The position numbers were made by a program, and so were the translations under genes. The notes under the pieces are model-generated. The model had not been told where the DNA came from, made no database searches, and worked only from the letters and a program-made list of their open reading frames with translations. A stretch of DNA of 64,000 nucleotides from Eledone cirrhosa. Lineage: Eukaryota. The DNA lies in assembly GCA_964016885.1 (NCBI GenBank), contig OZ024758.1, positions 2,356,001 to 2,420,000 on the forward strand. The letters are read 5' to 3'. Shown here in pieces: positions 1,287 through 60,853 of the stretch; positions within the stretch are counted from its first letter, which is position 1; every line of letters begins with the position of its first letter.

Positions 1287-1340
1287 TAGCTGTCAAAACG
1301 GCTGGAGCTCAGCCATCGAGGTCCTGACTCTTTTCCTATA
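1287..1340 (+). mobile_element. Family J fragment (degenerate 3' half of a hammerhead)
   Basis: tagctgtc-aaaa-cggctggagctcagcca-tc-gaggtcctgactcttttcc is homologous to 54681-54730. Confidence 0.65.
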
Positions 1341-1774
1341 TCTATATATCTTTTGACAGGTTCTTAGCTGGTTTCTTTTCCTGAGGCCTCAGCTGTCCAT
1401 TTGATGTTGGAACAGGATTTCTCGTTTCCTTCCTCTGTGTGTGCATATATACATACATGTGTATATCCATAGTAAAAGACAAAACTGAAAGAAGTTTATA
1501 AAGTTTAACATGTTTTTTTATTGACAACGTATATGAATTAATTTATTTTATTTTCGTTACTTCTCGTTCACATACCGCTGGGAAGCATCCTGAACAACAA
1601 TAAAATGTCTGTTAATAAAAAGTTTACATATTATATACGAGTTGTCTTACTATTTTGACAATGAAAAATAATTAGATTTTTAGCCTCATAAAGGCTTCTA
1701 ATCAATTAGTTCTCTTCGGAAGGAGTGTTTAAAAGAAACTAAGGAAGACATACCTTCTATATGTCCACATAATA

Positions 1775-2500
1775 AATATATATATAAATAAATATACATA
1801 TAATATACATGTATGTATATATATATATATATATATATAAATAAATATACATATAATATACATGTATGTATATATATATATATATATATATAAATAAATA
1901 TACATATAATATACATGTATGTATATATATATATATATATATATAAATAAATATACATATAATATACATGTATGTATATATATATATATATATATAAATA
2001 AATATACATATAATATACATGTATGTATATATATATATATATATATATAAATAAATATACATATAATATACATGTATGTATATATATATATATATATATA
2101 TAAATAAATATACATATAATATACATGTATGTATATATATATATATATATATATAAATAAAATATACATATAATATACATGTATGTATATATATATATAT
2201 ATATATATAAATAAATATACATATAATATACATGTATGTATATATATATATATATATATATAAATAAATATACATATAATATACATGTATGTATATATAT
2301 ATATATATATATATAAATAAATATACATATAATATACATGTATGTATATATATATATAAATATAAATAAATATACATATAATATACATGTATGTATATAT
2401 ATATATAAATATAAATAAATATACATATAATATACATGTATGTATATATATATATAAATATAAATAAATATACATATAATATACATGTATGTATATATAT
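1775..2500. repeat. ~50-55 bp minisatellite with a variable (TA)n part
   Basis: About 14 copies of ataaataaatatacatataatatacatgtatg(TA)n. Confidence 0.9.
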
Positions 2501-5500
2501 ATATATAATATATATATATATATATAATATATATATATATATATAATATATATATATATATATAATATATATATATATATATATAATATATATATATATA
2601 TATATAATATATATATATATATATATAATATATATATATATATATAATATATATATATATATATATAATATATATATATAATATATATATATATATATAT
2701 AATATATATATATATATATATAATATATATATATATATATATAATATATATATATATATAATATATATATATATATATATAATATATATATATATATATA
2801 ATATATATATATATATGTATATATATATATATATATATATGTATATATATATATATATATATATATATATATATGTATATATTATATATATATATATATA
2901 TATATATGTATATATATATATATATATATATATATATATGTATATATATATATATATATATATATATGTATATATATATATATATATATATATGTATATA
3001 TATATATATATATATATATATATATATATATGTATATATATATATATATATGTATATATATATATATATATGTATATATATATATATATATGTATATATA
3101 TATATATATATGTATATATATATATATATATGTATATATATATATATATATGTATATATATATATATATATGTATATATATATATATATATATATATATA
3201 TATATATATATATATATATATATATATATATATATATATATATATATATATATATATATATATATACACATATATACATATATACATATATATATATACA
3301 TATATACATATACATATATATATATATATATACACATATATACATATATATATATACATATATACATATATACATATATACATATATACATATATATACA
3401 TATATATATATATATATATATACACATATATATATATATATACACATATATACATATATATATATACATATATACATATATACATATATATACATATATA
3501 TATATATATATACACATATATACATATATACATATATACATATATATATATACACATATATACATATACATATATACATATATATATACATATATACATA
3601 TATACATATATACATATATACATATATACATATATATATACACATATACATATACATATATACATATATATATACATATATACATATATATATACATATA
3701 TATATATATACATATATATATATATACATATATACATATATATATACATATATATATATATATATATATATACATATATATATATATATATACATATATA
3801 TATACATATATATATATATATATATATATATATACATATATATATATATATACATATATATATATATATATACATATATATATATACATATATACATATA
3901 TATATATACATATATATATATATACATATATATATATACATATATATATATACATATATATATATACATATATATATATATATATACATATACATATATA
4001 TATATATATATATATACATATAATATATATATATATATATACATATATATATATATATATACATATACATATATATATATATATATATATATATACAATA
4101 TATATATATATACATATATACATATATATATATATATACATATAATATATATATATATACATATATATATATATATACATATACATATATACATATATAT
4201 ATATATATATATATATACATATATATATATATATATATATACATATATATATATATATATACATATATATATATATATATATACANNNNNNNNNNNNNNN
4301 NNNNNNNNNNNNNNNNNNNNNNNNNNNNNNNNNNNNNNNNNNNNNNNNNNNNNNNNNNNNNNNNNNNNNNNNNNNNNNNNNNNNNNNNNNNNNNNNNNNN
4401 NNNNNNNNNNNNNNNNNNNNNNNNNNNNNNNNNNNNNNNNNNNNNNNNNNNNNNNNNNNNNNNNNNNNNNNNNNNNNNNNNNNNNACACGTATATATATA
4501 ACATATACATATATTATATATATGTATATATTATTATAATATATATATATATAATATATATAACATATATAATCTCTATATATATATGATATATATGTGT
4601 ATATATAATATGTATATAATATATATAATGTATAATATATATATATATATATTTATAATGTATATATATATATTATATATATAATATAAATATAATATAT
4701 ATAATGTATATATATTTGTATATAATATATATATATATAATGTATAATCAATATATAATATATACACACACACATATATATATATATATATATATATAAA
4801 TATATATATATATATATATAAATGTAAAATGTATAATATATATAATGTATAACATATATATAAATATATATACAATGTAAAATACATATATAATATATAC
4901 TGTATAATATATATACATATATAAATATATATATATATACATATATATATATATGATATATATAATGTATAAATATACATATACATATATTTCATTATAT
5001 ATATATGTGTGTGTGTATGTGTGTAAACATAACATATATATTATATATTATATACATATATAATGTATATAATACATACATAATGTATATAATATATATA
5101 TAATGTATATATATACATTATATATATATTTATATAATATACATATATATATAATATATACGTATATATATATATATACATATATATATATACATACATA
5201 TATATACATATACAAATATATATATACATATACATATATATATACATATATATATACATATATATATATATACATATATATATATACATATATATATATA
5301 TACATATATATATATATACATATATATATATATACATATATATATATACATATATATATATACATATATATATATACATATACATATATATATATATACA
5401 TATACATATACATAATATATACAGATATGTAATATATACATATATGTAATATATATGATATATACATATATAATATATATATATATATATATATATATAC

Positions 5501-6377
5501 ATATACATATACATATATGTAATATATACATATATGTAATATATATGATATATACATATATAATATATATAACATATACATATATATATCATTTATACAT
5601 ATATGTATATATAATATATACATATAAATATAATATATATAATTTATACATATATATAATATACACACATATATATATAATATACACACATATATATATA
5701 ATATACACATATATATATATATAATATATACATGTATATATATAGAATATATATAATAAATACATATATATTAGATGTATATATATATATATATATATAT
5801 ATATATATATATATATATATATATATAATATATACATATATATATAATATGCATGTATATATGTATATATATATATATATATATGCGTGTGAGTGTGTGC
5901 GTGCGTATGTATATATATGTATATATATATATATATATATATATATATATATATATATATATATATATATATATATATATATCTATATATATATATAGCA
6001 AATATATATGTATATATATATATATATATATATATATATATATATATATATATATATATATATGTATATATATATATCATATATATATATATATCATTTA
6101 TACAAATATATATATATAATATATATATGTGTATGTATATATGTATATATGCATATATACACATATGTTTATATATACACATATATACACATATATACAC
6201 ATATGTTTATACATACATATATATACACATATATGCATATATATATATACATATATGTCTATATATGTATGTCTATATACATACATAAATATAGACATAC
6301 ATATGTACATATACATATAATATATATATATATATATATATATATATATATATATATATATATATATATATATATAT
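2500..6377. repeat. Long interrupted (TA)n microsatellite field
   Basis: Seen directly; spans the gap. Confidence 0.95.
4286..4485. other. Assembly gap (200 N)
   Basis: Run of N. Confidence 1.
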
Positions 6378-59311: not shown

Positions 59312-59411
59312 CAGGGTGTGCCAAAAAAATGTATACAAACTTTGATTACCTATACAGGCAATATTTATTACACTGTTATTAAAGTGTGTATACATTTTGT
59401 GGGACATTTTA
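59312..59411. mobile_element. ~100 bp Tc1/mariner-type MITE
   Basis: TA|cagggtgtgccaaaaaaatgtatacaaacttt ... aaagtgtgtatacattttgtgggaca. Confidence 0.7.
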
Positions 59412-60201
59412 TATAACAGACCAGTTACTGTGAATATGTAACAAATGGTACACAGATGATCTATAACTGAGTTACTAAAATGAAATATTTGTCAACATTG
59501 CTAAAGGTGGTAAAGTCAACATTAACCGAACGTAACACTACCACAAATAAAGTGAAAAGAATAGACGACCCAGATTCCTTGTCCTGTAAACTTATCTAAT
59601 CAAAGCTATAGTTGTCTTAACACAGCTTGGTTAGTTTGAGCTGGTGTGTCTGTTATTGCATCTTTCAGAGACCAGATTTTATGTCATTAACACACTGCTC
59701 CCTAAAACATCTGTTACTTATTTTCTGCTTCTTTTTGTGCAATTAATATTTGCATTTTCAACTTGTCCTTTTATCGTTCTTCTTTGTAAAATGTCTCTAC
59801 CTAGGATATTGTAATTATTTTCTCTACTTTTATTGATTCCATTTTGTTTGTTTTTGTTATAAATGTTATTTGCAAACTATTTCAAACTGTTCTGAAGAGA
59901 AATACGATATTACTTTCCACATATTCTATAGAACTTATAAAAATAACTATCGTAGCTTAAAAAAAAAACTTAGATGAGTATATATATATTTTTTTAAAGT
60001 AATTAAATATTTTAAGAGAGTCAAATATTGATTGTTTGATGTGAAATAAGGATTAGTAAGGTTAAGTGTTGATTAATGGAAGAGAAGGCGCGAGATTTAG
60101 TGATTAGAAGAGTTGGATTCGCAATCTCACGATTGCGAGTTCAGTTCAATTCTCGAAATATTTGACTGCTAACATTTTTAAGTTGACAGTGATAAACTGA
60201 G

Positions 60202-60407
60202 GGCGGTGAATTGGCAGTATCGGTGGAGCGTCGGACAATATGCTTTATACGCATAGAGATACGGTCCTTTACGATCTGAGTTCAAATCCTGCCGAGGTTA
60301 GCTTTGACTTTCATCCTTACGAGGTCGATAAAATAAAGTTCCAGTAATGTACTGGGTCGATATAATCGACTTTCCCCTCCCCCAAAATTGTTGCCCTTGT
60401 GTCCAAT
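60202..60407 (+). mobile_element. SINE family A, long-3' variant, full length
   Basis: A and B boxes; gtcgatataatcgactttcccctccccc segment. Confidence 0.9.
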
Positions 60408-60804
60408 ATTTCTTATAGACTTGCAGAAATCAGCGAGAAACTATTCAAATAGATCTTCTTCAAAATATTCCTGGAAATTATAAGATGGAAGTTTTCAGTG
60501 ACAACCCTTTCTCTATTTGAGTTATATTTGAGACTTCACTCCCTGACTAACGAATTATTGGATTCAAATAAATCAGTTAAACCAGTCGTGGATACTCGAG
60601 TCTTCTTGGAATAATTTATACTAACTGTAAAATAATACTGAGAAGAAATATAGGAGTGTCTTTTATTGAATTCTCTTAAATATGTACGTGTGTGTGTGAT
60701 ATATTATGCATATGCATTCCATTTACACATATGCATTCATACTCATATGCATGTATATATATATATATATATATATATATATATATATATATATATATAT
60801 ATAT

Positions 60805-60853
60805 AGGAAAAGCCAGGACCCCGACGGCTGAGCTCCGGCCGTTTCGACAGCTA
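60805..60853 (-). mobile_element. Family J fragment
   Basis: Minus strand tagctgtc-gaaa-cggccggagctcagccg-tc-gggg. Confidence 0.78.

Follow-up and report, generated by a model that had tools for sequence, protein, structure and literature searches.

The 64,000-nt window analyzed here (Eledone cirrhosa, assembly GCA_964016885.1, contig OZ024758.1, positions 2,356,001 to 2,420,000) lies in a microsatellite-rich genome of 3.0 Gb and harbors seven copies of a short repeat, here termed family J, which are end pieces of a Penelope-like element (PLE), a retrotransposon that in this case inserts into (TA)n runs. Across the genome these pieces present two fixed ends that abut TA runs, a sharp common edge, arms of independent length and an edge position that is specific to each family. 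Judging from the sequence, both strands of the target probably prime reverse transcription at two fixed sites within the element's RNA, +59 and +141, with both cDNAs running off the 5' end of the RNA before their ends are joined. Most copies lack one half of the element's hammerhead ribozyme because transcription likely starts in the middle of the ribozyme, and not because the ribozyme fold stops the reverse transcriptase (RT), as the original prediction for this window had proposed. Positions are numbered from the A (+1) of the motif YAGTCCAGAA in L035, a natural long copy; the hammerhead core lies at −43, the 5' strand of helix II at −36 and its 3' strand at +11 to +18, the cleavage site at +41/+42, the inner fixed end at +59 and the end of the tail at +140/141.

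Breakpoints and fixed ends of family J

The pile-up of family J ends inside loop II of the hammerhead is real and very strong. Breakpoints were counted in 98 distinct copies, each extended against L035, which were drawn from the first 100 tail ends listed for contig C1; a genome search that forced matches to reach helix II was excluded from the counts. Direct arms end between −4 and +8 in 54 of the 98 copies and extend beyond this interval in seven, while the other 37 are spread at 3–6 per 13-nt bin down to +115. Among the 92 copies ending between −12 and +115, the concentration of 54 ends in −4 to +8 has a binomial p of ~1e-31. An adjacent inverted arm starting at +59 is present in 58 copies, and 49 of these arms end in the same interval, with two reaching beyond it; solo pieces starting at +59 (60805 and 14727 in the window) stop at the same edge. 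Exact matches fall from 19,380 for +1 to +20 to 4,809 for −6 to +20, a drop inflated by subfamily differences, and a TA-anchored pattern finds 55 matches at +1 versus four at +12. In contigs assembled from short-read runs X1 and X4, depth increases ~25- to 33-fold between L035 bins 6004–6029 and 6056–6081 (+1 being 6044) and falls past the tail, and loose ends occur at both +59 and +141; depth summed over contigs is an approximate gauge, and X1 and X4 may have the same source as the assembly. Runs X5 and X6 yielded only three and four contigs and were unused. Breakpoints are thus clustered genome-wide, as anticipated, and the cluster lies 3–14 nt past the 3' strand of helix II. Stalling at helix II misfits this position, since an RT that proceeds in the 3' to 5' direction will already have copied that strand on reaching the edge.

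The opposite ends are fixed. The 3' end meets TA in nearly all of the 98 sampled copies, and genome-wide there are 22,100 exact tail ends (+115 to +140) and nearly as many TA-abutting +59 ends (19,551). Exact junctions between tail and open reading frame (ORF) number only 194, so that stubs outnumber ORF junctions by ~100:1. The two arms of a copy vary in length independently: the inverted arm reaches at least 10 nt further 5' than the direct arm in 14 of the 58 copies (two of them marginal through microhomology), the reverse holds in two, and in seven copies the direct arm ends at +67 to +113 and shares no overlap with the inverted arm. These long inverted arms count against self-priming of a snapped-back cDNA, because a folded cDNA can copy only what it holds.

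Both arms meet at +1 in 1,816 places. By hand count, the commonest full junction, ACT-AAATTT-AGT, occurs in 12 of 50 listed places, and eight of the 50 carry an unambiguous extra C or G. The AAATTT junction is compatible with two 3' ends that paired by way of AT or were abutted, but not with a hairpin loop. In the junctions of L089 and L104, a repeated +1 segment is preceded by G and a long T run lies before +1, which would fit run-off cDNA that slipped or re-primed. A seemingly fixed T/C difference between the arms, considered as proof of two templates, was dropped: the query carried a rare T allele, and the sampled copies mostly have C on both arms.

Edges of sibling families

Two sibling families break at a different place, just upstream of the ribozyme core. 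Family I, with 31,535 exact matches, has a canonical CTGATGA core (copies L128–L157), and 15 of its 27 distinct ends lie from −2 to +7 nt around the first base of that core, at CCAGAT / CCAGATTCC; in its commonest subfamily, the TATA box TATAAATA is found ~30 nt upstream of the edge. Family K (25734–25770; L158–L187), whose 3' part has 32,898 exact matches, carries CAGAAGA in place of CTGANGA, and 11 of its 30 ends lie from −3 to +9 nt around the first base of the core, at TTAGTT / TTAGTTTC. Other copies of I and K mostly run far upstream. The initiator of transcription has a YYA consensus, and it is an initiator-like YYA motif, rather than a helix, that appears to be common to the edges of these families. 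TTAGTY/TCAGTH is kept at +1 across J subfamilies with otherwise different loop II sequences. The original claim that families G, K and I also have copies starting within helix II holds for single copies in the window, which start in or near that helix; however, the window also contains an I copy with CTGATGA (63431) and a K copy with a whole core (25734), and the genome-wide pile-ups of these families lie elsewhere.

A run-off model for the inverted ends

In L1 twin priming, the second target strand primes internally and generates an inversion, and in the minus-strand strong-stop of long terminal repeat (LTR) elements a cDNA initiated close to the 5' end of the RNA runs off that end. The process envisaged for family J would combine aspects of both. 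Transcription would start at −4 to +1 in the 5' pseudo-LTR (pLTR), at the initiator-like motif inside loop II, and the edge would be the capped 5' end of the RNA. The element protein would nick both strands of a (TA)n target, cDNA would begin at +141 on one target strand and at +59 on the other, and both cDNAs would run off the RNA 5' end. End joining, with trimming and short stretches of microhomology, would then connect the cDNA 3' ends head to head. Ends at +42 would come from the minority of RNAs that the ribozyme had cut at +41/+42, and long and tandem copies would stem from a template without the +1 end, either a circle closed by ligation or a transcript reading through a tandem array. 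Unlike in L1 twin priming, the second site is fixed in J and the arms overlap to form a palindrome; unlike in the LTR strong-stop, priming would be by target DNA and the run-off product would be inserted as is.

Three further observations are consistent with run-off at an RNA 5' end. An extra G at such an end is known from L1 work as the trace of a copied cap or of an untemplated C; a G precedes +1 in 22 of 55 TA-anchored J copies, against 8.1 expected from flanking DNA (p = 4e-6), and precedes the family K edge in 11 of 34 copies (13 C, 10 A), with 5.0 expected (p = 0.007). Secondly, TA-abutting starts form a minor peak at the cleavage site, with 12 at +42, 13 over the eight positions from +34 to +41 and none at +43 (42 places, hand count). 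Thirdly, 21 of 30 ORF-junction loci have a long ORF side (14 independent places), and all 21 pass +1 by at least 42 nt, whereas seven of 61 edge-reaching stubs go beyond it. The remaining nine loci have short ORF sides and start mostly at +4 or later. Since the long copies pass +1, they seem to use a template without the +1 end.

The two fixed ends match the two tail-bounding start sites described in the available text on PAc, a Poseidon PLE of Anolis, and thereby lend support to twin priming: in vitro, two internal RT start sites bound the PAc tail and both target strands are cut and extended (PMC11167929). Uncleaved RNA, the main template of PAc, would be so in J as well. The J sites are ~82 nt apart and precede the first AUG (+232); that text makes no link between inverted repeats or 5' ends and run-off. 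Transcription start inside the pLTR is reported for Penelope and Chlamys-3 in the portion consulted of PMC8557442.

Insertions that join different PLE families (J with K at 25620/25621; L176 and L188, which include I with G) suggest that more than one RNA can contribute to a single insertion.

A number of points weigh against this model. The 98 copies sampled represent the first 27 Mb of one contig. One-sided deletions after insertion might mimic some of the long arms, case by case. Identical subfamily alleles occur on both arms in 26 of 33 pairs, with 21% expected at random, and only two pairs differ by two common alleles; such sharing is predicted by cDNA snap-back or by a single RNA source. 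Before +1, C is more frequent than any other letter (29 of 55, with four A), as the flank and one subfamily explain; G is not in excess at −4 (1/7), though many junctions reach −3/−4, and its preference in family K lacks significance when set against A alone (p = 0.10). In J, a TATA-like TATTTAAA lies at −29 but lacks conservation among subfamilies, and inspection by eye revealed no downstream promoter element. No cleavage-site peak was seen in family I. Finally, the ends of family G are spread from −51 to +76, 11 of 30 lying inside the ribozyme and 19 of 30 getting to the core or beyond, often near TCATT.

A complete cycle can be sketched on the same grounds, as a possibility that we put forward only tentatively. 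The promoter inside the loop would yield an RNA with half a ribozyme, and twin priming within that linear RNA would give rise to tens of thousands of strong-stop-like palindromes. Both ends would be cut by the ribozyme copy at the 3' end, which would act in trans on the 5' end, and long, pLTR-bearing and tandem copies would arise from the ligated circle only.

Alternative explanations

Twin priming might operate on an RNA whose end is a processing cut in loop II, made by a host endonuclease or at the 3' splice site of a 5' untranslated region (UTR) intron. A sharp edge by itself shows only that the template ends or is broken there, the TATA-like box of J is weak, the TTTTCATTTAG that precedes +3 is similar to a splice acceptor and, in the accessible text of PMC4209133, an intron end of D. 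virilis maps at the hammerhead. Splicing, however, would leave the same upstream exon at every junction, whereas the 98 copies have no recurrent one; the AG lies within the edge, and both the extra G before +1 and the family I TATA box at about −30 point away from a processing cut, which we regard as rather unlikely.

According to the original prediction, RT stalls at helix II and the self-complementary cDNA snaps back and primes itself; self-priming has been proposed for PLE palindromes in the part of PMC3846280 available. Most stubs are indeed near-perfect palindromes with a centre close to helix II, the region is rich in stems and the sharing of arm alleles is as expected. Nevertheless, 14 of the 58 inverted arms hold sequence absent from the direct arm, seven of them without any overlap, so that snap-back is contradicted for at least a quarter of the arms, and solo +59 pieces share the edge. 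Breakage past a helix strand already copied, the scarcity of ends at +12 and the location of the family I and K breaks just upstream of the core leave the notion that the fold sets the breakpoint unsupported, and the fixed TA-abutting +59 end is left without a reason. We therefore deem this explanation improbable.

The palindromic stub could also be a non-autonomous element resembling short interspersed elements or miniature inverted-repeat transposable elements, spread from a few masters, with the pile-up reflecting shared descent, as the preponderance of stubs over ORF junctions and their high similarity might indicate; yet nearly every copy has its own junction, the edge recurs in at least five subfamilies and the arms vary independently, which makes this very unlikely. 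An assembly artefact (fold-back reads) or later palindrome collapse, conceivable in a genome rich in (TA)n and perfect palindromes such as that at 15331–15826, is scarcely credible: comparison of the arms gives 69 differences in 2,581 bases (one pair misaligned), the outer ends are fixed, and the X1/X4 contigs reproduce both the rise in depth near +1 and the loose ends at +59 and +141.

The family J element and its hammerhead

Family J appears to represent a known kind of element, with motifs of the Hydra clade. In L035, an inverted arm is followed by the 5' pLTR, 786 open codons, a 1.2-kb 3' UTR and a 3' pLTR with tail that runs into (TA)n; partial tandems complete the PLE layout of the family. 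The tail spans +60 to +141 and exceeds the 30–40 bp usually given for PLE tails. The first Met of the ORF is codon 68, and the single frame encodes an RT with YRDD plus GIY-YIG (VIYQ...YIG) at the C terminus. A Pfam search with this protein returned nothing significant, and its nearest Atlas clusters consist of unnamed proteins and carry HTH_animal, GIY-YIG or RVT_1 in part of their members. The Hydra clade is characterized, in the text available of PMC8557442, by RWK, DKT, absence of GxKF/Y, a CxCX5C linker and terminal CxxC and CxH. A nuclease without the CCHH motif is a further criterion of the clade. The L035 protein has RWR (104) for RWK, DKT (184), CNCPDRSIC (639), CNLC (737) and CKH (765), the last two at the nuclease end, and lacks GxKF/Y; the (TA)n targets, the hammerhead near the 3' end and the inverted 5'-truncated copies of J are likewise those of the clade. 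In contrast to the Hydra families described there, which are mostly <3 kb, the J unit measures 3.5 kb with its long 3' UTR and is present as tens of thousands of stubs. Among loci C1:91476607-91487256, C1:437200354-437210969 and C2:356030076-356031892, the full 3.53-kb unit is found repeated head to tail, and a retrozyme-like array with the tail-ORF junction has a period of 299 bp.

That a PLE with a type I hammerhead in its pLTR underlies these pieces is borne out by the long J copies, in which the hammerhead is complete: CCCC, YTGAKAA, GNTCGGCTA, a 37-nt loop, TAGCCGTC, GAAA, CGGCT-TGAGCTCA-GCYG, TC and GGGG. The computed fold of −52 to +50 contains helices I, II and III, and helix II is altered on both strands in one copy of an older subfamily (CAGCTAG/CTAGCTG). 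The 5' half, predicted to exist upstream in full copies, was found in 4,460 J copies genome-wide, comprising CCCC, core and helix II 5' strand, but with a core that departs from the expected form: the literal string CCCC-CTGANGA-GACGGCTA has no match in the genome, the family reading CCCC-YTGAKAA-GNTCGGCTA. In the first 100 listed of these copies, 81 have U3/A8 and 19 C3/A8, whereas G8 occurs in 32 of the 4,460 and C3 also in three of these. Rfam returned no match for the full J motif or for family I; a scan of the whole window gave microsatellite noise, with no hammerhead among 150 of 464 matches listed, and a repeat-finder run on the window gave microsatellite noise as well. The 5'-end peak at +42 would be an indirect sign of self-cleavage after GUC.

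The U3-A8 core is a variant described for Schistosoma PLEs in the text seen of PMC4209133. The Cercyon hammerheads of that work share with J the covariation of the core, a long helix II with a short helix I, a palindromic loop III and nearby pairs on opposite strands; they differ in that the J helix III has 4–5 bp and most J genomic copies consist of the 3' half only. The hammerheads listed for the Hydra clade in the portion consulted of PMC8557442 have CUGANGA and short loops, unlike the U3-A8 core and 37-nt loop II of J.

Copies in the window

The seven J pieces lie where the original prediction placed them and align to one family, and none has the hammerhead 5' half (Table 1). That all of them break at helix II was not upheld: only 1287 (+10/+11) and one arm of 26950 (+11) stop at the helix. 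Ends inside loop II are found at 14727 (+2), 19292 (tail-less arm, −1/+1), 25540 (+3), 54621 (+5/+7) and 60805 (+1), and the tail-bearing arms of 19292 and 26950 end at +43 and +45, beside the cleavage site. The copies at 54621 and 25540 are palindromes, as claimed, with centres near 54675 and 25592, the latter being a chimera that passes into family K at 25621.

Table 1. Pieces of Penelope-like families in the window; J extents follow the L035 numbering.
Family	Position	Strand	Extent and remarks
J	1287..1338	+	Solo piece, tail-less, +10/+11 to +59, older subfamily
J	14727..14773	+	Solo piece spanning +2 to +59 after 5 extra letters, internal deletion
J	19292..19392	-	Tail-bearing arm, +141 back to +43 (adjoins cleavage site)
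J	19395..19443	+	Tail-less arm, -1/+1 to +59, 12-nt deletion; extends further 5' than its partner
J	25540..25595	-	Tail-less arm, +59 back to ~+3
J	25590..25620	+	Direct piece running from +3 to +33, continued by family K
K	25621..25799	+	3' end fused to J; hammerhead-like motif complete, with core CAGAAGA at 25734
J	26950..26995	-	Tail-less arm, ~+57 back to +11
J	26996..27094	+	Tail-bearing arm from +45, decayed; 5' end shorter than that of the inverted arm
J	54621..54674	-	Tail-less inverted arm, +59 back to +5
J	54677..54810	+	Tail-bearing arm, +7 to +140: loop II 3' part, helix II 3' strand, GAAA, helix III, GTC/GGGG, tail
J	60805..60864	-	Solo piece, tail-less, +59 back to +1; G before +1 (could be flank)
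G	19144..19283	-	Piece of sibling element, start inside helix II
G	61129..61387	.	Palindromic insertion
K	54373..54422	+	Stub, start in loop II
I	53661..53783	+	Stub with tail, start in helix II
I	63413..63488	+	CTGATGA core intact (63431), short inverted remnant

A 32-bp direct repeat (54524–54555 and 54826–54857) flanks the insertion at 54621, with microsatellite sequence between repeat and insertion, and is likely a long target-site duplication. In general, target-site duplications were found in eight of 59 cases versus three in a shuffled control, a test that TA runs blur, the 32-bp case excepted.

Other repeats are also present in the window. A perfect 496-bp palindrome occupies 15331–15826, and its arm matches a direct repeat copy at 58218–58475, belonging to another TA-flanked family. 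Further inverted-repeat structures lie at 49353–49802, 53926–54068 and 20659–20910, one of which inverts and duplicates unique flank around a TA run; inverted flank duplications are likewise seen at L114 and L061. A short interspersed family unrelated to J is found at 31833–32023, 35151–35333, 36882–37085, 43335–43542, 44705–44862, 54140–54345 and 60200–60403, and minisatellite arrays with periods of ~23/46, 52, 88 and 40 bp are located at 13103–14375, 28347–29545, 39180–39879 and 39989–40582.

Implications

Inverted pLTRs, tails, promoters in pLTRs, U3-A8 cores and two RT start sites are already known. In a literature search that was thin on subscription papers, nothing was found tying inverted PLE junctions to run-off at a transcription start, and searches on Penelope with twin priming or strong-stop, and on octopus with palindrome, returned nothing relevant. 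The origin of the head-to-head inverted ends of PLEs, that of the pLTRs and the role of the hammerhead are stated to be open in the available text of PMC8557442, PMC11167929 and PMC4209133. Run-off at the RNA 5' end, if true, would explain the long-puzzling inverted shape of Penelope-like elements. The ~20,000 young junctions in this genome lead to predictions at base level, namely transcription beginning at +1, RT initiating at +59 and +141, a cut at +41/+42 and two classes of template, and the same reasoning could locate the promoters of other PLE families from DNA alone.

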